Shown: positions 1 through 18,590, counted from the first letter of the stretch. The stretch is DNA of 20,000 bases from an uncultured virus (IMG/VR IMGVR_UViG_3300035395_000183) (IMGVR_UViG_3300035395_000183); one strand, 5' to 3'. The notes: generated by a model not told the origin, from the letters alone. Numbers and translations: made by a program.

Positions 1-222
1 CATATAATTTCTTATTCTTAAATCTTCATAGATATAATTTAAAAATTCATCATCCGTTTCTCAATCTCCAGCTGTTGTAGTTGGAAACATATAACTTGGA
101 ATCCCTATTGTTAATTTATATCCTGGATTTAATTTTTCGACTTGTAATCAACCATTATAGCAAGCTTTATATAAGCTCATTATGTAATCACGTATCGCTT
201 GCTCTAATTCTGTTTCTGTCAT
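1..222 (-). CDS. Hypothetical phage protein, 5' part only (runs off the window); TGA=Trp
   Basis: ATG at 222 overlaps the terminase TAA (TAATG). Reads MTETELEQAIRDYIMSLYKACYNG[W]LQVEKLNPGYKLTIGIPSYMFPTTTAGD[W]ETDDEFLNYIYEDLRIRNYM with in-frame TGA at 148-150 and 61-63 and no TAA/TAG. Confidence 0.8.
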
Positions 223-2420
223 TATTTAGGTTCTTTTAATGCGTTATAAGTTGCTCATTCTTCTTGTGAAAATTTTCTATAATGAGGTGTATTTTCCCAA
301 AATTCAGATTTAGGTTCATTATTAATTCATGTTTCATCCCTATTTTTTCTAGTCATATCATTTTTCTCTTCTCTTGTTTGCGGAATTACTCCATAATGTT
401 TGTATCCCTTATTATCAGTTCATCATCCAATATCTTGGAATTTTTTACCTTGTGGTTCTCTTGCTTCTGGTTTTTTAACTGATAATTCCTCATCTGCTAA
501 TTCACACATTCCCATAGCTGCAACAATATCAAATTTCTTTTTGTCTTCATCAGAGTAGTTTAGTAATTGATCTAATATTTCTCTAAACGATATTGTATAA
601 CAATAATCTAAACAAAAATCATAGATTAATTCTCTATAATGTTCAATTACTTTAACAGTAGCAGGAGTACCATACATATTTGAATTACCTTTTGAAATAT
701 CAGGCATAGTTGCTCTTGGACGTTTCATTAATAAAGATAAATATTTATGATCTCTAAAATAAGTAGTAATAGTAGTTCTTGTAGATTCTAAGACAGCTTT
801 CGCATAATAATAAGTAAGTAGTTTTGCTGCATTTTCATAAGCTTCTCTAGGGTCTCTAGGTCTGTCTTTATACATTGCAACATATTTTGGATCTTGTAAT
901 CCTAAAATTCTTTTCTTAATAACAATACAAAATTCTGAAGATACAGTTTCATTTGCTTTTTTAGATTGTGCAGAGTCTGTTGCTCCAATATCAATTGAGT
1001 CAATTCCTCCAACATATAAATTGTTATAATCCGTGCCTTCTTCAGACATTATAGGATGTTCTGCTATTAATATATTTCCATCAGGATCTTCACGTCATTT
1101 TACTTTTCCATTCCTCATTTTAGTATTTTCATCAATTGCTCATGTTAAAAATCCAGCTTTAGGTAATGGAATATCTTTATAAATATCAATATGTGCTAAT
1201 TGTTCTGCTATTTCCTCGACCGGAAATAAATTGTCTGAATGTTGAATTAAAGCCTCTTCAATTGTAAAACAATATTCAGATTTATATTCTAATAAATCTT
1301 TTGGTTCATCAATTAATTTTGATCGTTCTTTTAAATAATATTCTTTAGCTTTTCCAACATTACATCATCCTCGACTATCAATAAGCTCATAAACAATTCT
1401 ATAAGCAGGAATAAATAATCCAGAGATAATATATTTTCCATCTTGAGTAAAATTATGTCTAACAGGTAAAATATTATATGCTTGTGGATTTAAGGTCATT
1501 TTCTTTAATCCTTGCATTGAACTTGCTTTAGAGGAACCTCCAGTTCCAAAAGCAATACGTCGTCCAACTCTTTTACCTCCAAGTACAGAAATTAAAGCTT
1601 CGCCTTTAACTCATTTCTTTAATAAAACTGTATCCGCACCTGCTTCTTCGTAGATTAAAATTTGAGTTCTATCTCCCCTAAGTTTATCAACTTCATCGCA
1701 AACAAGTCCTTCAACTTCTGAACGATGTCCTGATTCACTTCCATCTTTATCTTTTTTAGATGCTCTTTTATGTGTAGCCGTATTTATATTCATGCGAACT
1801 CTTCGCAAAGCTCCTTCTGTGTTTTCATTTAATCAATCCATTTGTAACCAAATCTTACTAAGAGTTGGAGTTAAATGGTTTTTTGAAAAAGCAGAAACAA
1901 CAGATCTAAAGTTTGGAATAGTTGTATATGGTCTTACTATAAATGAAGAAGCCATTTCAGAAAATCCAATACCACGAGATTTTAATACAGATGTATCTTT
2001 CTTTAATTTTTCACACATTTCCAAATAATGAAAATATTCATATTGAAAAACTAAAAATTCTGGAAATCCATAAGTTTGATTTATAGTCTCAAAATCCGAA
2101 GATTTAAGATTATAGAAATTAAGAAAGAAATAATTATCTCCTGTTATTCTATATCCATTTACAGTATATCCATTATTACATCTATCAATTCTTTCTCTTC
2201 ATCAATCTACATGAGTCTTTGAACCTATAGGAATAGACGATGGACTATATCGGCCTGTTTTTAATTTATTAAGAGCGTCTTCTCTAAATCAATTTGGATT
2301 AAAATCTAATCCTTGAGTATCATTTATTGGTCTAAACCCAGTTAATTCAAAAGATTGTTCAATATCAAAATACTCAATAGGTTGTCCCAAAGGAACATCT
2401 CAAGTAAAAGTATTAGCCAT
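222..2420 (-). CDS. terL: Terminase large subunit (crAss-like), 732 aa when TGA=Trp
   Basis: Track ORFs 1833..2024, 1611..1808 and 423..1049 share one frame and are separated only by TGA. Open from ATG 2420 to TAA 222-224. Motifs: Walker A-like LKSRGIGFSE, Walker B ILIYEEAG, coupling motif IAFGTGG, RNase H-like nuclease YVGGIDSID and KFDIVAAMG. 13 TGA and 2 TGG. Confidence 0.95.
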
Positions 2421-2422
2421 AA

Positions 2423-2998
2423 TTAATCAAATATTCCAAGTTCAGTATTTCCTCTAAGCGTACTTTCAGTTTGCATTCCTTTTTTAACTTGATATTCTAA
2501 CTCTTTAAGAGTTGAGATTAAATCTCTACAACCTTTAATTTCTGCAATTAAATCTTTGCTTTTAAAAATAGGTTTGCCACTAATGGGATCTCTTTCTTGT
2601 AAATCTACATGGTCCAAATAAAATATTTGTTTCTCAACTGCTCCCATTGCAGATTTTAATAATCTTAAATCAAGGGACGAGTTTTGTAGTGAATCATATT
2701 TTTTACAAGCTGCACGAAATAATGGGTCATCAAATTCTGCTTGTGTTAAACGAGAATCTTTTAATGCTTCATTATGTTTATCTTGTTCCGAAAATTGGAA
2801 ATAAGGACTAGCTCAATCAAAGAATAAATATATATATTTTAATTCTCTAAAAGCTCTAAGTTTTTGTTTTCCAGTTTTATCAGTAGAAGTTTTATTTCTA
2901 TCTAAACTTAATAATGCATCAAATTCTTCAACTAATAAAAGTCCTTCTTCATCTAAAGATATATTACCATTAACATTATCATATACAAATCATTTCAT
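2423..2998 (-). CDS. Phage protein immediately upstream of terL (possible small terminase or packaging-associated), 191 aa with TGA=Trp
   Basis: Track ORF 2423..2647 extends in frame to ATG 2998 (MK[W]FVYDNVNG...YIYLFFD[W]ASPYFQFSEQ...). TGA at 2990-2992 and 2813-2815. Fits between neighbours with 2-bp gaps. Function inferred from position only. Confidence 0.75.
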
Positions 2999-3000
2999 AT

Positions 3001-3582
3001 TTATTTCTTTTTCTTTAATTTACCGCCACATTTACAAGAACAAGTTTCCATAACTTTTCCTCCTGCGGCTTTAGTAAGAATCATATCGCATCCACAAGAA
3101 CATTTCTTTTTCTTTTTAGTAGTTCCACCTTTAGCTTTAGTGATAACTGGATTTGATGCAGACTCTGCAACTGTTTCTTTCTTTGTAATTGGTGCTGCTT
3201 TCTTAACTAAATTTAATTTCTTAAGTTTAGCACCTTTAGCTGCAAATTGCGCACTATCTAAAGAATTAGTTTTATGATCTGCAATGTATTGAGTTTGATA
3301 AGCTTCTAATTGAGCTAAATTTTCTTCAGATAATTGTTTATATTGTTCAACAGCTTTATTAACAGTGTCGTCATCTACTGAAATTGTAGAACTTCATTCT
3401 TCTCCTGGTATGGTATCTTTAAATTTACCATACTTTTCAGGATTTATTTCTTGCGATACTAAGAAGACAAAGAAAGGAAGTAATTCTTTCTTTTTATCTT
3501 CTGTAATACTTCCACCTATTTGGAATGATTTTAATTTATCATATCCATAAGGATTTTTAAGTTTATTTAATTCTTGTATCAT
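3001..3582 (-). CDS. Lys-rich protein with repeated xxGG motifs and a Cys-rich C-terminus, 193 aa with TGA=Trp
   Basis: Track ORF 3394..3582 continues through TGA 3394-3396 to TAA 3001-3003. The C-terminus reads KAKGGTTKKKKKCSCGCDMILTKAAGGKVMETCSCKCGGKLKKKK. Confidence 0.8.
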
Positions 3583-3584
3583 AA

Positions 3585-3809
3585 TTATAATTTCTGTAAA
3601 TCTTTAGTATTATATAAAGCTTCCTGTAGTTGTCCTTGTGTTGTAAATCATCGACATAAAATTCCTTGAAAAAAATCTCCTCGTAATGATTCTGTCTTAA
3701 TTGATTTAGTTACTTTTTTAACTACAATCATTATAGGTTTATTTGGTATATCTTGTCTAATGGTTACTACATCACCAGGAAGAAAAAATTGTTTTAATTC
3801 ATTTTCCAT
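3585..3809 (-). CDS. YodC/DUF2158-like small protein, 74 aa with TGA=Trp (absent from the ORF track)
   Basis: MENELKQFFLPGDVVTIRQDIPNKPIMIVVKK...GILCR[W]FTTQGQLQEALYNTKDLQKL. The F-x-x-GDVV...P-x-M-x-V...C-x-W-F pattern resembles DUF2158, and the motif Trp is the TGA at 3648-3650. Confidence 0.7.
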
Positions 3810-3810
3810 A

Positions 3811-4350
3811 TTATTCCATTTTAAAACGTGCTTTTAATCCTTCATTAATTACTGCTATTATAGATGGCTCTACTGTAACTTTATATCCTTGCTGCATAAA
3901 TGGAAGAGGATATACTGTACGTGTATCATAGAATACATCGTCGCCATTTTTTATATATTTTACTTCAGGTCCAACTTCTATAACTTGTGCACATCCAACA
4001 AAGACATCCAATTTATCTTTTTCACCTGAATCAGGATTATTAAAATCTCCTGTATATTCTACTATAATTTTTCCCTCCATTACTTTTCTGTAAGGATTTA
4101 AAGCATAAGGTAAAATAATTATCTTTCCTCCCATTGGAATTAGTTCCAAGCGTTCTAGTTTTTCATCAAGTTCTTTTTGTTTCTTCTCTTGTGCTAATAA
4201 AAATAATTTATTAGCTTCTTCAAGTTCTTTCTGCTCTCTTAATTTTTGAGCATCTCTTAGTATTTGATTCTCTGGTAGAAAAATATCCTCGTTGGCTCCT
4301 ATTCTATTAGCCATATAAAATTTCCCTGTTTGTTCTTCTTTTAAACTCAT
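3811..4350 (-). CDS. GroES/Cpn10-like co-chaperonin with an N-terminal helical extension
   Basis: LIPMGGKIIILP...AQVIEVGPEVKYIKNGDDVFY matches the Cpn10 pattern (P-x-x-x-x-V-I-I ... V-x-x-VG ... K-x-GD-x-V-x-Y). Contains no Trp codons. Confidence 0.75.
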   Translation of the reverse strand: MSLKEEQTGKFYMANRIGANEDIFLPENQILRDAQKLREQKELEEANKLFLLAQEKKQKELDEKLERLELIPMGGKIIILPYALNPYRKVMEGKIIVEYTGDFNNPDSGEKDKLDVFVGCAQVIEVGPEVKYIKNGDDVFYDTRTVYPLPFMQQGYKVTVEPSIIAVINEGLKARFKME

Positions 4351-4377
4351 AATTCATTATCATTTTTTAATTAATAT

Positions 4378-4650
4378 TTACCACTTTCCTAGTGGACATT
4401 CTGTATCTTCTACTCTTGTTTTTGATCCTAACACGCAGCCACATCCATGTCTAAAACCTGGTTTAGCTGTTTTTGAGATTTCATTTGTTGCTGGATTTAG
4501 ATATAATGTTGAATTACATACTTCTCCAAATATTTTATCTTTTTTTAACAATTTACATTTATGACAAATGGCTATTCTTTCTTTATACAATTCTTCGTCT
4601 TTATTTAAAAGATTTTTGTATGTGCCATTAATTATTTGACTGATAGACAT
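4378..4650 (-). CDS. Small Cys-rich (probably Zn-binding) phage protein, 90 aa
   Basis: Likely start ATG 4650 (MSISQIING). Contains ERIAICHKC...C...GCGCVLGSKTR...CPLGKW; TAA at 4378-4380. Confidence 0.75.
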   Translation of the reverse strand: MSISQIINGTYKNLLNKDEELYKERIAICHKCKLLKKDKIFGEVCNSTLYLNPATNEISKTAKPGFRHGCGCVLGSKTRVEDTECPLGKW

Positions 4651-5345
4651 AATATAACTCCTCCTAATATTCCTCCTCCTAACCAATAAGGCCAACGACC
4701 TGCTCGTTTTTGAGATTTGTTTAATTGTTGTATTAATTTCTCATTGGATTGTTTATATATCGTTATAGCATCTTCATTTAGTTTTACAATATCTTTACAG
4801 TTTTCGGATACTTCTTTAAAAATATCAATTTCTAACTGTTGTTTATGTATAATTACTTCATCAATTTTATAAAGGTCTTTATATTTATATAGACTATTTA
4901 CTTTAAGTCTTAATTTAATTACTCCTTCTTTAGTAAATTGATATTTAATAAGTGTGTCATTTTGAGTATCTTTAATAATTGCCCATGTTGGCATTTGTTC
5001 TGTTAAAGAGTCAATTGCTTTTGCGTGGTCTGCTGCACTAGCATCCTTAATTATATTATCTTTTTTAGTTGTTTCAATATAAACAATTTCTTTTGTGCCT
5101 TTAACTTCTTTTATTTCTTTCTCAAGACTATCTACTTGTGATAATAAAATTGTATTTACTATATTAATAGAATCAACTTTTGCTTCATACTTAGCAGCTA
5201 TCATTTGGTGTTCTACAATATTACTATGTTTATAATCATTTACTCATTTAATAGCCATTCAATAAAATGCTGCCACTACTATCAAACTAGTAATAGCAAT
5301 TCCTACTCTAAAAAATAATTTTTTCTCTTGATTGCTTAAATTCAT
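4632..5345 (-). CDS. Membrane protein: N-terminal TM, long helical/coiled-coil middle, C-terminal TM (spanin-like candidate), 237 aa with TGA=Trp
   Basis: Track ORF 4632..5204 extends through TGA 5244-5246 and 5259-5261 to ATG 5345, adding MNLSNQEKKLFFRVGIAITSLIVVAAFY[W]MAIK[W]VND. The C-terminus is WPYWLGGGILGGVILCLSVK. Spanin role is inference. Confidence 0.65.
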
Positions 5346-6234
5346 TGTGTTCAATTTGTTGTTTATGAAAAGTTAGCATTCTTTCTACTTCAGTTTTTAA
5401 ATACTCACATTCATAAGTTGCATTATTTCCATCATGATCATAATGTAATAAAATAAGCGCTTTAATATTGAATCTAGGATCAATCTTTTGAATCATCCAT
5501 GCGTAAGTAGATAACTGTATGCTATAATGCCAAAAATTAGTATCTTGTATATTGTTAAGAGGATACTTCATCATAGAATGTTTTTTAGTTTTTCTATCGA
5601 AATATGCTTTCATATCAATCTTTTTATTAGTTTTATAGTCTAGAATGTATACATCAAATCCATCTATGATAACTAAATCAGCTTGTCCTGCCAATCTAAG
5701 TTTTCCATCAGGTGATATTCTAGATAAAAGTAATTCAGGATATATTCCACGTCCTGGTTCTATTTTATTTGAAGTCTTGGTAGAAAATGAACCACCTAAA
5801 CCTAAATGTTGTAATTCTTTTGTTTTACCAGCAAGATGTTCTAACTCATGCTGTCTATGAATTGCAGTTCCTCTAATACAAGAAGCTTCTCGCTTTTCTC
5901 GTCAGTCCTCAAGGATTTCCTGCTTCCTTGTAGAAAAGGCGTCTAAAGCAACGCCTGTTCTATCAAGGTAAGTTTGGTTGAATTGTTTAAAATTTAACAA
6001 ATCGGGTTTTACACTTTTAAAATTATCTTCACCTATTAAACTTTCTAATGCTTTATAGGAAGACCAAAAATCTTCATCAAATACAGTAAACTGATGAATA
6101 AGAGTTGTAACCGAAATGCAGGATTGATTAGATTCTTTAACCCAGTATTTATGGAGTTCATCATTATATTTAACTACTTCATTTTCTTTATCTACTAGGA
6201 GTTGATCATAATCAATTACATTTGTCACCATCAT
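5308..6234 (-). CDS. PD-(D/E)xK superfamily (exo)nuclease, about 308 aa with TGA=Trp
   Basis: Track ORFs 5902..6234 and 5308..5694 are in one frame and joined by a single TGA (5902-5904). Motifs: SVTTLI, [W]REKREASCIRGTAIH, LAGQADLV, ILDYKT, YSIQLSTYA. Ends at TAG 5308-5310. Confidence 0.9.
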
Positions 6235-6959
6235 TTAAATTTTTTCTTTTCTTTTTCTCTTTCATCTATCTCATCATAATTGATCATTGAACCAATTCTT
6301 TGTGCTGCCCTACTTACTAATGGTAAAATTGCTGGATATTCTAAAATATTATAGGATGATCGGGTTGTTACAATAGCTAAAAATCCAATGGCTTCGTCAA
6401 CACCCTGAATTGAATAGAATAAAACACTTTCAATATCTGCTCGTTCCATTACTTGTTCCAATACTCTGCAATCTGGGGGTATTGGCCCAGTGCGGTCAAT
6501 AAAAATGAATCCATCTCTTTCTAACCTTGTTAAAAATGGAGCCACCATTGCAGTATTTAAACGTTCATGTCTTTGACTCATTAAAGGTAATCCTGGAGTT
6601 GCAACTTCATTAGTTGCAGTCATAAACAAAAATGGAAGTCCTACGAGATTTGTAGTTCCGTTAGAAAACTCAAAAATAATTGCTCTATTAGCTTTTGTTT
6701 CTTCAGCTAAATTACTAAGTATTTCCTGCACTTCTTCAGTAAATTGTTTTCTAAGTCTGTTACCATGTTTATGATTAGCTTTTTCTTCTTCTTCTTTTTC
6801 AGAAAACTTTCTATCAATAATTTTACTTAATACATTCTTAGAAGATAATAAGTAAGCCCCAGCCAGAAGTGGGATCGAACTAACTGATACAAAGGCAAAT
6901 GCCGCTCAATATCCATGATTAACAATAATATAAGTTATTAATTTTAATACATCTGCCAT
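6216..6959 (-). CDS. N-terminally membrane-anchored protein with a probable GAF-like domain; T4-T-type holin candidate, 247 aa with TGA=Trp
   Basis: Track ORF 6231..6731 extends to ATG 6959 via TGA 6906-6908 (MADVLKLITYIIVNHGY[W]AAFAFVSVSSIPLLAGAYLLS, hydrophobic). Soluble part has ANRAIIFEF...ESVLFYSI...AIGFLAIV (GAF-like strand pattern). The 3' end is 6231 if the TGA stops, or 6216 if it is read through. Confidence 0.6.
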
Positions 6960-8392: not shown

Positions 8393-8464
8393 CCGGCTCT
8401 GAAGGACTCGAACCCTCACCTATTAGTTTTGAAGACTAATGTGCTGCCATTACACTAAGAACCG
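8393..8464 (-). tRNA. Opal (UGA)-decoding tRNA, anticodon UCA, probably tRNA-Trp
   Basis: CGGTTCT TA GTGT AATGGCA GCAC A TTAGT CT-TCA-AA ACTAA TAGGT GAGGG TTCGAGT CCTTC AGAGCCG G. All four stems pair, the variable loop is short, the discriminator is G73, and CCA is not encoded. Anticodon at 8432-8430. Confidence 0.95.
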
Positions 8465-10742: not shown

Positions 10743-11489
10743 TTATAATTCAATTTCTTCATCATCCATTGTTGCTAAATCAATAGAAGTTGCTTTTAAA
10801 TATTTCTTTACCATCTCTAATTCATATTTCATCTTATTAATTTCCATTTGCTGTTGAGCAATTATGATATCATGTTGTTCTATTTTGCATAATACAAACT
10901 GTCCGAATTTTGGTAAATTAAATTCTAAAGCTTCAGTAGGATTACCATCATTATCTGATGTAAGTCTTTTACTTATAAAGTTACTATCAATCAACTCGGA
11001 TACTCGTCTATAAATAGTAGATTCGGATATTCCTGTTTTTTCGGATAACTCTTTATCTGAATAAGTTGTTTTAGCAACTCCTGTATCTTTATCTACAAAT
11101 AAATGTTTTTGAACTGCTATCATAAATGCTTTTTGCTGTGTTGTTAAATCTTTATTCTTTAAAAATTCATAATCATACATTTCAAATTTCTCTGATTTAG
11201 TATTGAATTTATAAGCATTACATTTTCCGACTTTAGTTTTATTTATATCTCCACAATCCTCTAATCTTTTAATGGCATTTACAACTCCTTGATTTGACAT
11301 TTCACAATCTTTTGCTAATCTAGCAATACTCACTATTGCCATTTTAGTTTGACTGTTCATAAATTTCTTGATTTGAGCATAGACATTCAAATCATTATAT
11401 TCTTTTCTTGTTGTTCTTCCATCTTGTTTAAAATTTGGAGTACTAACAGAATTTGGTACTTGTATATGTTGTTTGCTACTATGTTCCAT
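10743..11489 (-). CDS. Tandem winged-helix DNA-binding protein, putative replication initiator
   Basis: Likely start MEHSSKQHIQVPN (ATG 11489). Two wHTH units (SIARLAKDCEMSNQGVVNAIKRLEDCGDI and SDKELSEKTGISESTIYRRVSELIDSNFI) and a C-terminal coiled coil; adjacent to iteron-like repeats. Confidence 0.75.
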   Translation of the reverse strand: MEHSSKQHIQVPNSVSTPNFKQDGRTTRKEYNDLNVYAQIKKFMNSQTKMAIVSIARLAKDCEMSNQGVVNAIKRLEDCGDINKTKVGKCNAYKFNTKSEKFEMYDYEFLKNKDLTTQQKAFMIAVQKHLFVDKDTGVAKTTYSDKELSEKTGISESTIYRRVSELIDSNFISKRLTSDNDGNPTEALEFNLPKFGQFVLCKIEQHDIIIAQQQMEINKMKYELEMVKKYLKATSIDLATMDDEEIEL

Positions 11490-11507
11490 TTGATAAAATT
11501 TGAATAA

Positions 11508-11515
11508 CAAAGATA
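11508..11515 (-). promoter_or_regulatory. Bacteroidota-type -7 promoter box for the wHTH gene
   Basis: Minus strand TATCTTTG about 19 bp upstream of ATG 11489. Confidence 0.6.
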
Positions 11516-11594
11516 CACAAAATTGTTCAAACAAATTGTATATGATATGTTAAAAAATGTTAAATTATAAAATTCGAGACTGAGGTGTATCTAC

Positions 11595-11670
11595 GTCAAA
11601 TTTAGTATGATTTTTGTCAAAATTAGTGGAAGCCCAAGTCAGATTTAGTATGATTTTCGTCAAATTTAGT
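11595..11670. repeat. Four iteron-like direct repeats GTCAAATTTAGT (putative origin or operator array)
   Basis: GTCAAATTTAGT 11595, GTCAAAATTAGT 11616, GTCAGATTTAGT 11638, GTCAAATTTAGT 11659; spacing 21/22/21 bp. Confidence 0.85.
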
Positions 11671-11937
11671 GACATACTATACTTAATATATACTTAATCT
11701 TTTACTATACATAATGCTGTCAATGGGCTAGCGCGACTTTCATAATATCCAATTTATAAAATAAGGTATTACAAAGGTGTTTCTGAAAAAAATTTTAAAA
11801 ATTTTTGAAAAATTTTTTGGGAAAAATTTTTGTTTTTATGTTATAAATGTGAGTCCTGTTTCCTTTGTTCCCTCCAGCCTTAAGGGGCGAGAAAGGCACA
11901 AAGTTTTTCAGACTTCAAACCAATAAAAAACAAAAAA

Positions 11938-14378: not shown

Positions 14379-14462
14379 ACTCTACTAGAAGAGTATAAAC
14401 ATTGTTAAGTCTAGTGCGTTGATATAATAATATCAGGTCAAACCTATAAAAACCTAGAAATA

Positions 14463-14750
14463 ATGAACGTTACATTAAAACAAGCTTTTTCTATCTTAGA
14501 TGGTAGATTGACTACAGATATGGATGATGTATATTCCATGTTGAGTTACATTTTTGGTGTTAATCTTTTTACTCATGAATTGCCAAGTGCAATGAAAGCA
14601 TTACAAGAAACTAATCCAAAATGGTTTCAAGAAGGTAAAGATCTCATTGATGGTATTAAAAAAGCCAACAATACAAATGATTTTGTTCAACTTATGAAAA
14701 TTATTGATGAACAATTTTCAGATCGTCAAATTATTTTACAAAAGATTTAA
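14463..14750 (+). CDS. Hypothetical protein
   Basis: 95-aa track ORF; leader AAAAACCTAGAAATAATG. Confidence 0.8.
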   Translation: MNVTLKQAFSILDGRLTTDMDDVYSMLSYIFGVNLFTHELPSAMKALQETNPKWFQEGKDLIDGIKKANNTNDFVQLMKIIDEQFSDRQIILQKI

Positions 14751-14771: not shown

Positions 14772-15011
14772 ATGTGCAAGCATAAAAAATTTCAAGAGTA
14801 TTTTAATACTCGATTTGAACAAGTAAAGCCTGACTTAACTGAAGAACAGGTTGCAGAAATATCCGATTTCAACTTACCAGCTGAAGAGCTGCGTGAAGAA
14901 CTGTGTGAAATCATCGAAAGAGATGGATATTCTCTTACGTTGGACTATTTAGTTGGATTGTGTAATCAGTTCACAATCACAACAGTGATAATTAATCCTC
15001 AAATGAATTAG
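14772..15011 (+). CDS. Hypothetical protein
   Basis: 79-aa track ORF; leader AAAAACCTAGAAACAATG. Confidence 0.75.
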   Translation: MCKHKKFQEYFNTRFEQVKPDLTEEQVAEISDFNLPAEELREELCEIIERDGYSLTLDYLVGLCNQFTITTVIINPQMN

Positions 15012-15013
15012 TA

Positions 15014-15211
15014 ATGGCACACGATCTCAAATTAGTAACAAAAGAAAGGAAAAGTAGAATGTTTGAGTTCACTTATCCTGGACCACTGACAGAACAAGAA
15101 GCCTGCGAAATACAAATGCAGTTAGGGTATCATCCTGCTGGATATGGCTTTTATGGCTTTAAATCTACTCCTCTCTTAACCCAATGGTCATGTGGGGATT
15201 CATGTGATTAA
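15014..15211 (+). CDS. Hypothetical protein
   Basis: 65-aa track ORF starting 2 bp after the upstream stop; LGYHPAGYGF...WSCGDSCD. Confidence 0.75.
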   Translation: MAHDLKLVTKERKSRMFEFTYPGPLTEQEACEIQMQLGYHPAGYGFYGFKSTPLLTQWSCGDSCD

Positions 15212-15287
15212 AGAATCTAGGTTTCTCCTAATGTGTAAGCAAAGGGAGATTCCTTAAATGTTAAACCAATCCCTAAAAACAAATAAA

Positions 15288-15677
15288 ATGAGTGCAACAT
15301 CACATCGTGTCCTTAGTTTAACTCCCTTCGTGGTTGAGTTCATAAACGGAACATCAAGTATTGTGATTCCGTTTCAAGTTGCTTTAACAGTACGTGAGAT
15401 TGAAGAACAATATGACTTCATTGTCTTTACAAAGACGGTAATAGAGCTTAAAAAGTTCACTGTAGACATTCATGTTTATAAAAACAGTGAAACTACATTT
15501 ACAACTGATTCGTTCAGTGATGCCTTAAGAATACAACAAGGTGCATCTGCAATAGCTCAATTAATGGGTTGGACTAGGCATTCAAGTTGTGAAGAAGAAA
15601 TCTCACATTTTGACAGCGTGTTTGATTTGTACAACGAAGGCGCAATAATTGTTAAACGGATTTATCCTAATTCTTAA
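15288..15677 (+). CDS. Hypothetical protein
   Basis: Track ORF 15258..15677; ATG 15288 is preceded by A-rich CTAAAAACAAATAAA. Confidence 0.7.
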   Translation: MSATSHRVLSLTPFVVEFINGTSSIVIPFQVALTVREIEEQYDFIVFTKTVIELKKFTVDIHVYKNSETTFTTDSFSDALRIQQGASAIAQLMGWTRHSSCEEEISHFDSVFDLYNEGAIIVKRIYPNS

Positions 15678-15682
15678 TAATT

Positions 15683-16042
15683 ATGGATAACATTGATAGA
15701 ACTGTCACCTTGGGTATTGCTGTTATAGTGTTAACTCTTATTATATTAGGTTATGTGGGTTCTTGTAATAAAAATAAAGATTCACAATACTTTAATTACA
15801 AAGTTGTACTTATTGAAAAAGGTGGCTACTCTGAACGTGATGGAAAGTTTTCTAATAACGGAAAATATTTTCTTGTTCAAAGTGTAGCTGATACAACATT
15901 GTATACAGAGTTAACAGGATATAATTATAACGCACTCGCAGAAAACAATGGCAGTGCATTATACTGGTCTAAACAACCAGGAGACACGTTATTTTTTAAA
16001 TACATCCGAAAGGATCGATTTTGGCGAAAGATTGCCAAATAA
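15683..16042 (+). CDS. Membrane-anchored protein or probable lipoprotein
   Basis: Hydrophobic VTLGIAVIVLTLIILGY followed by VGSC (lipobox-like). Confidence 0.7.
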   Translation: MDNIDRTVTLGIAVIVLTLIILGYVGSCNKNKDSQYFNYKVVLIEKGGYSERDGKFSNNGKYFLVQSVADTTLYTELTGYNYNALAENNGSALYWSKQPGDTLFFKYIRKDRFWRKIAK

Positions 16043-16075
16043 AAATTTCCGATAATTCTTTGCTACCGGAAAAAG

Positions 16076-16150
16076 AGTTCTTTACGTCTCAGTTGGTAGA
16101 GCGGACCCATTCAGCGGGTCGAGGCACGGGTTCGAGTCCCGTAGGAACTC
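16076..16150 (+). tRNA. Atypical tRNA-like gene with UCA anticodon (second potential UGA decoder, or degenerate tRNA)
   Basis: AGTTCTT TA CGTCTC AGTTGGTA GAGCG GACCC AT-TCA-GC GGGTC GAGGC ACGGG TTCGAGT CCCGT AGGAACT C. Acceptor, anticodon and T stems pair; the D-arm has extra nucleotides. Anticodon at 16111-16113. Confidence 0.7.
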
Positions 16151-16234
16151 CATTAAATCATCAGTGTTCTTCTTTGAATAACGTTAACAAGGTTAGGTAG
16201 AGACTAATTATGTGATGATTTTTCGTATTTTCTG

Positions 16235-16399
16235 TAGGCTGTGAAAGCCGCCATTTCTATGCTAGCGATAGATAGGTGATGCCAGGAAAATGATTCAATA
16301 AAAGTAATAAATTTATTGAATCTGCCGGTTAACGGCTAAAGCCAGAGGGGCTACTGGACCAAAGTGTCGGTGGTAAACAATGTCCCTAAAATAGCCTAC
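16235..16399 (+). ncRNA. Putative structured RNA downstream of the tRNA-like gene
   Basis: Closing stem GTAGGCT/AGCCTAC. Internal hairpins GATTCAATAAA/TTTATTGAATC, GCCG GTTAA CGGC, CCAG..CTGG and CTA GCGA TAG. No track ORF. Confidence 0.45.
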
Positions 16400-16460
16400 T
16401 GAAGAATCGGAAGCATAAGGTAACTTGCTAGACGAGGAAAAACTATTAAGGAAGCTATTT

Positions 16461-16503
16461 AAAGCACAAGAGATTCGAAGTCTTTTTTCTCTTGTGCTTT
16501 TTT
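16461..16503 (+). terminator. Intrinsic terminator
   Basis: AAAGCACAAGAGA ... TCTCTTGTGCTTT TTT, a 13-bp perfect stem. Confidence 0.75.
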
Positions 16504-16530
16504 ACTTTGTAACCAATTAAACCTAGTTAT

Positions 16531-16698
16531 ATGAAAGATTGCTCAATTGTTGGAATAATACTAGCAATAGTTCTTTTATTCCTTGCTTGTTTACCTTTTA
16601 TAATTGCTTATTATAAGCAGTTTAAGGTTAAGCAAAAAGAAAAGAAATACGCTGAAGTTCACAGATTGTTGAATAAACCAACCTCTATGTATGATTAA
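16531..16698 (+). CDS. Small single-TM membrane protein, 55 aa (below track cutoff)
   Basis: MKDCSIVGIILAIVLLFLACLPFIIAYYKQFKVKQKEKKYAEVHRLLNKPTSMYD; overlaps the next start by 8 bp. Confidence 0.7.
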   Translation: MKDCSIVGIILAIVLLFLACLPFIIAYYKQFKVKQKEKKYAEVHRLLNKPTSMYD

Positions 16699-17068
16699 AC
16701 ATTTGTATGAAACAACTACTTTTGTTCCTTATTCATTAACAGATAGATTGATTATCTACAAAATGATTAAAAAACAATTAGATAGTATGGCTGTAGATCA
16801 GAATGGATACATTGGATTTTGTCGTTTATTGGCTAATGCCCAAGTTAAATTCGCTGCAATGGAAGCAGTTGGGATACAAAGGCAGTTAGATCAATGGGAT
16901 TTGATTGATTTTCCAGAGCTTAAAGCATATCGTCCTGCACGGTTTGTTACCAGTTATGGTACTCCAGGTGGTGTATTTTGGTATGCTCTCAATGAAGAGG
17001 GAAATAATCGACGTCAAATAATCATTAATGCAGTAATTGCTCAAGTAAGAAAGGAGTTGTATGGATAA
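16691..17068 (+). CDS. Hypothetical protein
   Basis: 125-aa track ORF with short overlaps to both neighbours. Confidence 0.8.
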   Translation: MIKHLYETTTFVPYSLTDRLIIYKMIKKQLDSMAVDQNGYIGFCRLLANAQVKFAAMEAVGIQRQLDQWDLIDFPELKAYRPARFVTSYGTPGGVFWYALNEEGNNRRQIIINAVIAQVRKELYG

Positions 17069-17483
17069 ATATACAGCGACTGAAGAACAATTGCCAACAA
17101 CAACTAAAGATAAACGTATTATCGTTGTTGGTAAACCATCTGAAGAAATAATGGCTAATGTTGTGGCACTTGCAAAAGCTCATGACATTGAAATTATTGT
17201 GCGTGAAGTTGGAGAAGATGGTAAATCTTTTGCTTATGCAGAAGGTTTTAATCCAAATCCACCTGCTGTAACATTACCATACAGTCTTAATCCTTATCTA
17301 TCAATATCAAAGGAATTAAGTGAACTTCCAATCTTAAGTGATTATCTACCTAACCCAACGAGTAAGCAATCAAAGTATGCAAGAGTGGCAACTCAAGCAG
17401 AACTTGATGCTCCGAAAGTTGGACGTAACGAATTATGTCATTGTGGTTCAAATCTTAAATTTAAAAAATGTCATGGAAAATAA
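17061..17483 (+). CDS. SEC-C motif (SecA C-terminal Zn-binding) protein
   Basis: C-terminal PKVGRNELCHCGSNLKFKKCHGK matches the SEC-C consensus GRNxxCxCGSxxKxKxCHG. Confidence 0.88.
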   Translation: MDKYTATEEQLPTTTKDKRIIVVGKPSEEIMANVVALAKAHDIEIIVREVGEDGKSFAYAEGFNPNPPAVTLPYSLNPYLSISKELSELPILSDYLPNPTSKQSKYARVATQAELDAPKVGRNELCHCGSNLKFKKCHGK

Positions 17484-17835
17484 TTTAGAAGCTTTTGTAA
17501 AATTAAAGCAAGACTATGAAATCATAGCAGAGGAACTTGAATCACAATATGACCTATTTATTGGTGCTCTTTCTTTTTTAAAAAAAAGGACAGGATTTGG
17601 ATCTACTCAATCGTGTACTTTATGTGTTGCTGCAGAAATATTTCAACGCAAAACTAAGTGTATTCGCTACTGCAAATACTGCATGTGGGACATTAATTCT
17701 GGAGAAGCCATTGCACCTTGTGTTACAAACAACTATTCTGAAATCTATAGTTGTATGTCAACACATCAGTTAGCAAATTTATTAAGAAAACGTGTTGTTA
17801 TGATGGAAAAACAAATAAGAATTTCTCAGGGGTGA
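17473..17835 (+). CDS. Cys-rich hypothetical protein ending at TGA
   Basis: Likely start ATG 17473 (MENNLEAF). Contains CTLC, CIRYCKYC and further Cys. TGA at 17833-17835; readthrough would extend to TAG 17872-17874. Confidence 0.7.
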   Translation: MENNLEAFVKLKQDYEIIAEELESQYDLFIGALSFLKKRTGFGSTQSCTLCVAAEIFQRKTKCIRYCKYCMWDINSGEAIAPCVTNNYSEIYSCMSTHQLANLLRKRVVMMEKQIRISQG

Positions 17836-17862
17836 GGATTAGTGAGGCAAAAAATCCTATAT

Positions 17863-18590
17863 TTGTCCGTTTAGTAGGTAAACCCGTAAAGACTTGGGTA
17901 AACGGAACATAACTTCAAATTGAACCAAGGGAACTACGCAACGTTCCTCATACTTCGATTACCATTAGTATGCTACATAGTACGGGTTAGTTGGCTCCAA
18001 GAAGTTATAACAGAAGGAGAGCTGTTATAACATATCTAAAGGAGGAAGTTAAAATATTTAAAATAAAACCATATAGGATAATACATAAACTGTATGTAGT
18101 TGGTAATGAGATGAGACAAACCTAAAGATATCGAGAATTTGAATTGCTCGATTATTCACTTTAGAAAGGTTATTCATATCTATCAATGAGGTTAACGAAG
18201 TCCTTTGAATTGTAATAGATATCGCAAAACAGTGAAGACATAATAAACTGTTTACAATTCATAAAAATCTATTGTAATAGTAGATGTGTTGTTCCCTTGA
18301 GAAAGGAATGCTGGAAAAGAAATAGAGATATAATCTGTTACCTGTAAAGGAGTAACACCACAGCATAGTAATATGTAGTCTCTACAACACAATGAGTCTC
18401 AAGCAAGATGATTAATATTAGTACCTACCAAGTCGAATCTGGTTCCAAATTGGTATTAATCATTGCGACCCTAAGTTTCTTATTATAACATATAATCTCT
18501 AATACCATGTAGGTGAAAAACCTCTTGCGCAAAGATAATAATGGTAGAGAATTATCATATAATTCTTGAGAAATAAGAAACGGGTGCTAA
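17863..18590 (+). ncRNA. Putative large structured non-coding RNA(s) including a pseudoknotted domain
   Basis: About 730 bp with no track ORF and a near-continuous chain of inverted repeats: TCCGTTTA/TAAACGGA, ATAACTTC/GAAGTTAT, TATAACAG/CTGTTATA, AAACAGT/ACTGTTT, TGTGTTGT/ACAACACA, ATGATTAATA/TATTAATCAT, GTTTCTTATT/AATAAGAAAC. Confidence 0.55.

Follow-up and report, generated by a model that had tools for sequence, protein, structure and literature searches.

From its sequence, we conclude that a tRNA gene on the rightward arm of a TGA-recoding phage combines the body and both end marks of a tRNA-His with the anticodon of an opal suppressor (Table 1). Our best reading, which we put forward tentatively, is that this is a real gene of the tRNA-His type with the anticodon UCA, that is, a His-type opal suppressor that would be expressed from the early arm and aimed at termination in the host rather than at the Trp codons of the phage.

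The gene lies in the window, the whole 20,000-nucleotide stretch of DNA that was analysed, which forms part of a roughly 200-kb phage from microbial mats and matches the first 20 kb of an IMG/VR record of 29.5 kb (G001) at 99.9% identity. A complete relative (G002) measures 213 kb and has 25 tRNA genes, and the public runs with this phage are microbial-mat metagenomes, all of them DNA. The leftward arm holds, in order, a replication initiator (10743-11534), thioredoxin, a tRNA, phoH, and then the TGA-recoded genes, with five further genes containing TGA besides the terminase in the late block. Each of the 12 informative TGA sites in the terminase falls opposite W, or opposite W/F/Y, in an alignment with 23 homologues, and relatives carry TGA or TGG at these sites. 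The near-identical 45-kb sequence G005 has 91 TGA sites in 33 ORFs with homologues; 77 of these sites are alignable, and their 208 aligned codons include 148 TGA or TGG, 24 TAT, TTC, or TTT, and one CAT (His), with no Gly codons beyond noise. On the evidence of these alignments, TGA in the late genes is read as Trp. Searches of G002, G001, and G005, that is, of one relative and fragments, found no gene for TrpRS (PF00579), an RF-1 domain (PF00472), or HisRS (PF13393). One homologue of the terminase (P0041, 1045 aa) contains intein/homing-endonuclease domains (PF05204, PF05203, and PF14528), and another, 87% identical (P0002), is encoded on a 96-kb contig.

The rightward arm (11.9-20 kb), which is presumably early, carries small genes of unknown function, a Pistol self-cleaving ribozyme, and the tRNA described here. 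Its confident genes stop at TAA or TAG and have no TGA inside, so that the gene does lie, as the preliminary description had stated, on an arm that needs no recoding. The Pistol match (14379-14442, + strand; 38.8 bits, Rfam cut-off 34.5) is located just upstream of an ORF with a DUF7736 domain (14463-14750), and G002 also has a Pistol ribozyme (58909-58970, equivalent to L048:18909-18970, + strand; 41.6 bits). In the divergent intergenic region between the two arms, positions 11595-11671 hold two 34-nt direct repeats that are 91% alike and 43 nt apart; a 39-nt match to this region occurs twice in G002, and the repeats could be iterons or promoters.

The regular suppressor on the leftward arm (8393-8464), which is of the Trp type, follows genes free of TGA and directly precedes phoH and the block that contains TGA. 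The placement of a suppressor after TGA-free genes and ahead of a recoded block is a published arrangement (Borges et al., bioRxiv 10.1101/2021.08.26.457843; here and below, published work is cited for those parts of each source that were available). Among 13 related phoH loci, 10 have a UCA tRNA on the phoH strand and 3 do not, two of the latter having short flanks. In five aligned phoH-linked UCA tRNAs the anticodon loop and G73 are invariant, and compensatory double changes are seen at 11 of the 16 predicted pairs; all seven phoH-linked suppressor sequences compared have G73 and the loop CUUCAAA. One relative encodes an unusually built phoH-linked UCA suppressor (L010:3564-3655, + strand) of 92 nt, with a long variable arm whose loop contains CCA, and the terminase of this relative still has TGA at Trp sites.

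Table 1. Features of the window (positions counted from its first nucleotide) that bear on the two tRNA(UCA) genes.
Feature	Position	Strand	Basis or detail
Late/structural block needing TGA as Trp (predicted)	222-6959	-	ORFs under code 11 versus code 4
Terminase large subunit, 732 aa, 13 in-frame TGA	222-2420	-	PHROG match, 5.7e-63
Regular opal suppressor tRNA(UCA), G73, loop CUUCAAA	8393-8464	-	Rfam, 63.3 bits
Hairpin between stop of ORF 15683-16042 and second tRNA	16046-16072	+	terminator-like scan (- strand); same stem in + strand fold
Genomic G at -1, which can pair with C73 to give an 8-bp tRNA-His-type acceptor end	16075	+	sequence; His covariance model
Second tRNA(UCA)	16076-16150	+	ARAGORN; Rfam RF00005
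Acceptor stem	16076-16082/16143-16149	+	7 bp including one G.U
Extra bases either side of G10	C16085, T16087	+	sequence
D loop	16091-16098	+	sequence
Anticodon stem GACCC/GGGTC	16104-16108/16116-16120	+	5 Watson-Crick bp
Anticodon loop ATTCAGC, 7 nt	16109-16115	+	A32, G37 (16114), C38
Anticodon TCA	16111-16113	+	after U33
Variable loop	16121-16125	+	5 nt
T arm ACGGG/TTCGAGT/CCCGT	16126-16142	+	T stem of 5 Watson-Crick bp
Discriminator C73	16150	+	sequence
3' trailer beginning C-A, CCA not encoded	16151-16152	+	as behind other tRNAs of the phage group
Structured non-coding RNA, ~350 nt, directly behind second tRNA	16152-16503	+	fold
13-bp hairpin followed by T run, to 16503	16461-16473/16488-16500	+	sequence; fold

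The second tRNA was called by ARAGORN at 16076-16151 with the anticodon tca, and RF00005 matched it at 16076-16150 with 37.9 bits (gathering score 29; E 6.8e-5 for the window). This alignment is full length, covering model positions 1-71 of 71, and has two inserted nucleotides after A9 and a single non-standard pair in the D stem. The two calls indicate that the gene is more than a chance resemblance, in agreement with the preliminary description, and each of the features that the description had listed (T arm, anticodon stem, TCA-containing loop, acceptor stem, A32, G37, C38, extra D-stem bases, C73, and G-1) is present in the sequence. Its Rfam score is the lowest of any full cloverleaf seen in the phage group, with the regular suppressor scoring 63.3 bits and the ordinary class I tRNAs of G002 scoring 45-72 bits. 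Pairing is complete in the acceptor (7 of 7), anticodon (5 of 5), and T (5 of 5) stems and reaches three to five pairs in the D stem, and the bases that make tertiary contacts are intact (U8, A14, G15:C48, G18, G19, U33, T54, T55, C56, and A58). A cloverleaf with an 8-bp acceptor including G-1:C73 and a 5-bp D stem with a bulged U has a predicted energy of -27.3 kcal/mol, while in the minimum free energy structure (-27.5 kcal/mol) the 5' D strand (GUCUC) pairs with the variable loop instead. The folding energy is unremarkable (z -1.9; 9 of 200 shuffles equally good). GC content is 57% versus 33-36% in the surrounding region. Identity to the regular suppressor is 55%, so the gene is not a duplicate of it but, as had been proposed, a separately derived UCA tRNA. 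The first base after the discriminator is C in all 25 tRNAs of G002 and in both tRNAs of the window (8392 and 16151), usually followed by A, which supports C16150 as the discriminator; none of these tRNAs encodes a full CCA.

One genome per GTDB species was scanned for tRNAs sharing the 3' part of the D arm and the T arm of the second tRNA, which gave a sample of at least 120 loci holding 121 such tRNAs, and all counts from this sample are among the matches listed. Among these matches, at least 27 are tRNA-His, and C73, G37, and G-1 are each present in all 27. C73 and G37 each occur in 0 of the 94 other tRNAs among the matches listed, and G-1 occurs in 10 of the 94: in 8 of at least 87 tRNA-Gly, in 2 of at least 5 tRNA-Thr, and in neither tRNA-Lys nor tRNA-Ile (at least 1 of each). 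Thus the G37 that had been recorded as atypical is indeed there but is not atypical, being a further mark of tRNA-His, and the His-like acceptor end reported alongside it (G16075:C16150) follows the pattern of 27 of 27 tRNA-His among the matches listed. In AT-rich G002, G-1 is found in 1 of 25 tRNAs, its tRNA-His (86900-86973), and C73 in 0 of 25; that tRNA-His has A73 behind its genomic G-1, unlike the 27 of 27 tRNA-His with C73 among the GTDB matches listed. Bacterial tRNA-His identity comprises an encoded G-1 that pairs with position 73, which is present in the second tRNA, the discriminator C73, also present, and the anticodon GUG, in place of which the second tRNA has UCA. The gene is therefore His-like in its body and ends, and it is not a tRNA-His gene.

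Two home-made covariance models, a rough stand-in for isotype models with training sets picked from the GTDB sample for likeness to the second tRNA (17 distinct bacterial tRNA-His; 31 tRNA-Gly, UCC and CCC), rank the tRNAs of G002 correctly, its tRNA-His scoring 74.7 bits with the His model versus 60.0 with the Gly model, and its tRNA-Gly 40.9 versus 65.7. The second tRNA scores 48.2 bits with the His model, to which it aligns end to end (16075-16150) with G-1:C73 used, versus 45.9 bits with the Gly model. This lead of 2.3 bits arises despite three anticodon mismatches to GUG, compared with one to UCC. Twelve tRNAs of G002 exceed 40 bits with one model or the other, and the His model gives the higher score for only two of them, His (+14.7) and Pro (+0.6). 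The comparison supports a putative His identity by a small margin that does not settle the matter. Pairwise identity to the 25 tRNAs of G002 is 47-72%, and no parent stands out.

Two other classes were considered and rejected. Selenocysteine tRNA was judged by the gathering score of RF01852, a model with an 8/5 branch, a 6-bp D stem, and a long variable arm; the second tRNA scores 17.9 bits against a cut-off of 47, below the cross-score of the regular suppressor (28.7), and its variable loop has 5 nt, so that the 'SeC' label given by ARAGORN reflects the anticodon only. A Trp-type suppressor would have G73 and the loop CUUCAAA, whereas the second tRNA has C73 and AUUCAGC and lies 8.3 kb from the usual place beside phoH, on the other strand. 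The missing G73 bears out the earlier suggestion that the gene lacks Trp identity.

G001 and two JGI metagenome contigs (L059 and L060) carry the second tRNA in identical form. The window and these three sequences are 99.9-100% identical, with the JGI contigs at 99.97-100% to the window. No second tRNA was found in the equivalent arm of more distant relatives with ARAGORN, or with Rfam on G002-G006 and six loci; in two of these arms (L012:1532-2586; L015:6317-6352, - strand), Rfam found DUF805b RNA motifs (RF02914, 37-51 bits). Pattern searches of IMG/VR gave no homologue with stems fixed and loops free, with the loop fixed and stems free, or with UCA and G37 combined with the D and T motifs. 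Such patterns have low recall, a control with A37 having returned only 14 loci, 7 of them called UCA by ARAGORN. A strict pattern had no match in GTDB genomes. By blastn, positions 15000-18000 have no homologue among GenBank phages, the tRNA alone gives generic tRNA matches only (136 records; best 77.8% identity, E 0.06), and a search of E. coli genomes found no homologue. The genes flanking the tRNA have no counterpart in G002. ORF 15683-16042 matched nothing in IMG/VR and only two near-identical contigs in JGI metagenomes, and ORF 14463-14750 matched nothing in IMG/VR.

A contig from a variant strain (run X5, depth 4) spans 15823-16161 and with it the whole tRNA, with seven substitutions and four gap letters. 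Beyond 16161 it no longer matches, the sequence behind the tRNA having been replaced and the tRNA kept. Both X5 contigs that cross position 37 (16114) read T there, although a difference in the spanning contig may be an error at its depth of 4; conservation of the loop, as checked in this one variant contig, would not extend to the G of position 37. High-depth contigs from three runs match only 16088-16142, with nine differences, two gaps, another acceptor stem, and U73; they represent a tRNA of some abundant organism and are not copies of the second tRNA.

If the second tRNA is a His-type opal suppressor, RNase P would leave G-1 in place because it is paired with C73, the host would add CCA, and host HisRS would charge the tRNA with His, since this enzyme recognises chiefly G-1 and C73, with the anticodon counting for little. 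The tRNA would then read UGA, probably weakly, given A32/C38, a base other than A at position 37, and the distortion of the D stem. Because TGA in the phage means Trp and is served by the regular suppressor, the likely targets would be host UGA stop codons during the early phase; host termination would also be the sensible target because His at Trp codons would harm the phage. Host UGA stops may be read through, or RF2 may be lost by way of its UGA-dependent frameshift site; in both cases termination at UGA would already be weaker when translation of the recoded late genes begins. Early genes would be immune because they contain no TGA, and it speaks for the His reading that the phage's own early genes, the confident ones ending in TAA or TAG, would go unharmed.

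Several observations weigh against full function. The minimum free energy structure favours the alternative pairing of the D strand, the general tRNA score is low, and the D stem has an insertion. In A32/C38 and in G37 after A36, the second tRNA differs from all the Trp-type suppressors seen here, the gene is missing from all more distant relatives with a readable equivalent arm, and the variant strain has T37 (depth 4). Since bacterial TrmD requires G36-G37 and MiaA requires A37, the second tRNA would stay unmodified at position 37. Against the His reading itself, a tRNA still active in the late phase would harm late proteins by placing His at conserved Trp positions, and A73 in the tRNA-His of G002 weighs against charging with His, as the rules of the host HisRS may differ. 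The charged G-1 tRNAs reported in PMC5389517, moreover, showed no decoding in E. coli.

Many of the same observations would fit a relic, a once-used tRNA gene, either a copy of a phage tRNA-His or an early make-shift suppressor, that is now decaying, uncharged or unused, and without effect on decoding. We consider this rather unlikely, although it accounts for the lowest Rfam score among the full cloverleaves of the phage group, the 2-nt D-stem insertion, the confinement of the gene to one strain cluster (window, G001, L059, and L060) with absence from relatives, and the pyrimidine at position 37 of the variant contig. A pyrimidine at this position is almost never found in working tRNAs. A relic would also agree with one study of phage tRNA-UCA, in which 9 of 31 were low-confidence predictions and 11 of 31 showed near-background activity in E. 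coli extract (PMC12636597). A decaying gene, however, is hard to reconcile with four stems that are all still paired and tertiary-contact bases that are intact, with 57% GC in a region of 33-36% GC, and with retention of the tRNA in a variant strain that has other sequence immediately downstream. In addition, exactly UCA in a UGA-recoding phage has a probability of 1 in 64 by chance.

The surroundings of the gene raise another alternative. The region behind the tRNA folds far more stably than expected (16152-16512: -104.6 kcal/mol, z -4.9, none of 100 shuffles reaching this stability), and the hairpin and T run that end at 16503 are probably the terminator of a transcript comprising the tRNA and this RNA, which we infer to form one transcription unit; the hairpin in front of the tRNA may mark the end of the upstream transcript. 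The downstream RNA (16152-16503) gave only noise in Rfam at E<=10 and nothing in IMG/VR, and a 55-aa hydrophobic ORF starts beyond it at 16531. The tRNA could accordingly be a tRNA-like module that does not decode, either an entry site for RNase P/RNase Z by which the ~350-nt RNA is released or stabilised, or a HisRS-charged tRNA that the ribosome does not use (a sink or signal). This is unlikely in our estimate. It has on its side the structured RNA and terminator directly behind the tRNA, with the hairpin in front, the Pistol ribozyme on the same arm, which indicates that RNA processing elements are in use there, the variation at position 37, and dispersed tRNA-like elements of G002 that are incapable of decoding. 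Two such elements lie outside the tRNA array, have similar 5' halves, and are not called by ARAGORN, one without an anticodon arm (63692-63750, + strand; 35.3 bits) and one with an 18-nt anticodon loop (53952-54037, + strand; 47.5 bits). Charged but non-translating G-1 tRNAs have also been reported (PMC5389517). A processing signal, however, needs no anticodon arm, yet here there is a perfect 5-bp stem, U33, and precisely UCA, and the downstream RNA has no relatives by which a link could show. Other unusual RNA genes of G002 are a tmRNA in this TGA-recoded relative (68160-68568, equivalent to L049:8160-8568, + strand; Rfam 107.3 bits, cut-off 47) and a run of four long odd tRNAs at 82862-83211, namely a 90-nt Tyr(ata), one that is uncallable, an 82-nt tRNA-Trp(CCA) with an extra arm, and Leu(tag).

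Bacterial Gly identity resides in U73, G1-C72, C2-G71, and G3-C70 (PMC9976931). A derivative of tRNA-Gly(UCC) that arose by a change of C36 to A and inserts Gly at UGA, or else a second Trp-accepting isoacceptor, is very improbable: tRNA-Gly makes up 87 of the 121 tRNAs with the same D and T arms among the matches listed, UCC is a single change from UCA, the Gly model gives 45.9 bits, and the second tRNA has an A1-U72 pair and A9, but only its D and T arms fit tRNA-Gly, its C73, A1-U72, G2-C71, U3-A70, and G37 contrasting with the U73, G1-C72, and A37 of 87 of 87 tRNA-Gly among the matches listed, while every Trp-type suppressor seen here has G73 and the TGA sites of the phage never align with Gly codons beyond noise. 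A1-U72 and A9 are Trp identity elements in bacteria.

The His-type suppressor reading can be extended to a code switch carried out by two tRNAs, in which an early His-type suppressor, charged independently of its anticodon and made together with a structured RNA, would attack UGA termination in the host, and the separate Trp-type suppressor would then decode the TGA of the phage. The attack would combine stop read-through with starvation for RF2 through the UGA-dependent frameshift. We regard this larger scheme as doubtful. The two-stage or antagonistic control system that the preliminary description had envisaged is not supported, no homologue having been found outside near-identical strains. 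The question at stake is how recoded phages impose a new meaning of a stop codon in a host with the standard code. If the scheme were true, the gene would be the first natural His-accepting suppressor of a stop codon, and the pair the first in which two suppressors of one codon have separate tasks. A suppressor in a tRNA-His frame, if charged mainly via its acceptor end, would separate the ending of UGA termination from the insertion of the right amino acid. The object is clonable, at ~80 nt or at 450 nt with the companion RNA, and for genetic-code engineers it would be a natural scaffold for UGA suppression. Even as a decaying gene, it would record how such phages try out tRNA bodies.

Among known systems, the closest are the Trp-type opal suppressors of phages (Borges et al., 10.1101/2021.08.26.457843; PMC12636597), which share with the second tRNA a phage-borne UCA anticodon where late genes use TGA as a sense codon. 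No phage aminoacyl-tRNA synthetase or release factor was found in the relatives searched here. All 13 of the 13 phage opal suppressors tested insert Trp (PMC12636597). Unlike the known Trp-type suppressors, the second tRNA has C73, G-1, G37, A32/C38, and a D-stem insertion, and it lies on the non-recoded arm in addition to a regular Trp-type suppressor. With bacterial tRNA-His it shares the 8-bp acceptor end with G-1:C73, G37, and the sequence of the D and T arms, and its A49-U65 pair also occurs in 8 of 27 tRNA-His among the GTDB matches listed. It differs from bacterial tRNA-His in having UCA instead of GUG, A1-U72 versus G1-C72 (27 of 27 among the matches listed), A32/C38 versus U32/U38, another variable loop, and two extra bases at G10. 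In bacteria, G-1 and C73 are the main determinants of His identity and the anticodon GUG is a lesser one, transplantation of G-1:C73 gives a tRNA-Ala minihelix His acceptance, and histidine identity in E. coli has been studied using a tRNA-His suppressor (PMC9976931).

Acidobacterial irregular G-1 tRNAs with a Thr (GGU) anticodon are likewise deviant in structure and likewise join a His-type 5' end to a foreign anticodon; they are charged by E. coli HisRS and show no decoding in E. coli (Mukai et al., PMC5389517). Some of these have 8/4 structures, and they occur in tRNA polycistrons near toxin-antitoxin genes (PMC5389517), whereas the gene described here stands alone, has a stop anticodon, and belongs to a recoded phage. 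The yeast mitochondrial tRNA-Thr(UAG), which derives from tRNA-His, offers an earlier example of codon reassignment by a tRNA-His body that took on a new anticodon; it differs in belonging to an organelle, in reassigning a sense codon, in its 8-nt loop, and in having switched its identity to Thr (PMC3113583).

Surplus suppressors are likewise known, with three tRNA-Sup-CTA in phAss-1 (PMC10607447) and a UCA plus an unused CUA suppressor in Lera (PMC12386605), and the idea that they harm or weaken the host has already been published (PMC10607447, PMC12386605). As in phAss-1 and Lera, the phage described here has more than one suppressor gene per genome, one of them not needed for its own codons. 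According to the available parts of these reports, the extra genes of phAss-1 and Lera serve another stop codon or are copies of one type, whereas here the stop codon is the same and the identity sets differ. A tRNA of the His type with a stop anticodon in a recoded phage was the subject of no report found in the open-access literature searched. To our knowledge, published recoded phages insert only Trp at UGA and Gln, rarely Ala, at UAG. Published recoding relies on a host TrpRS or GlnRS that tolerates a changed anticodon. What appears to be new here, as judged from the two genes, is the presence in one lineage of two tRNAs for the same codon, UGA, with different identity sets, the function of the second being putative.
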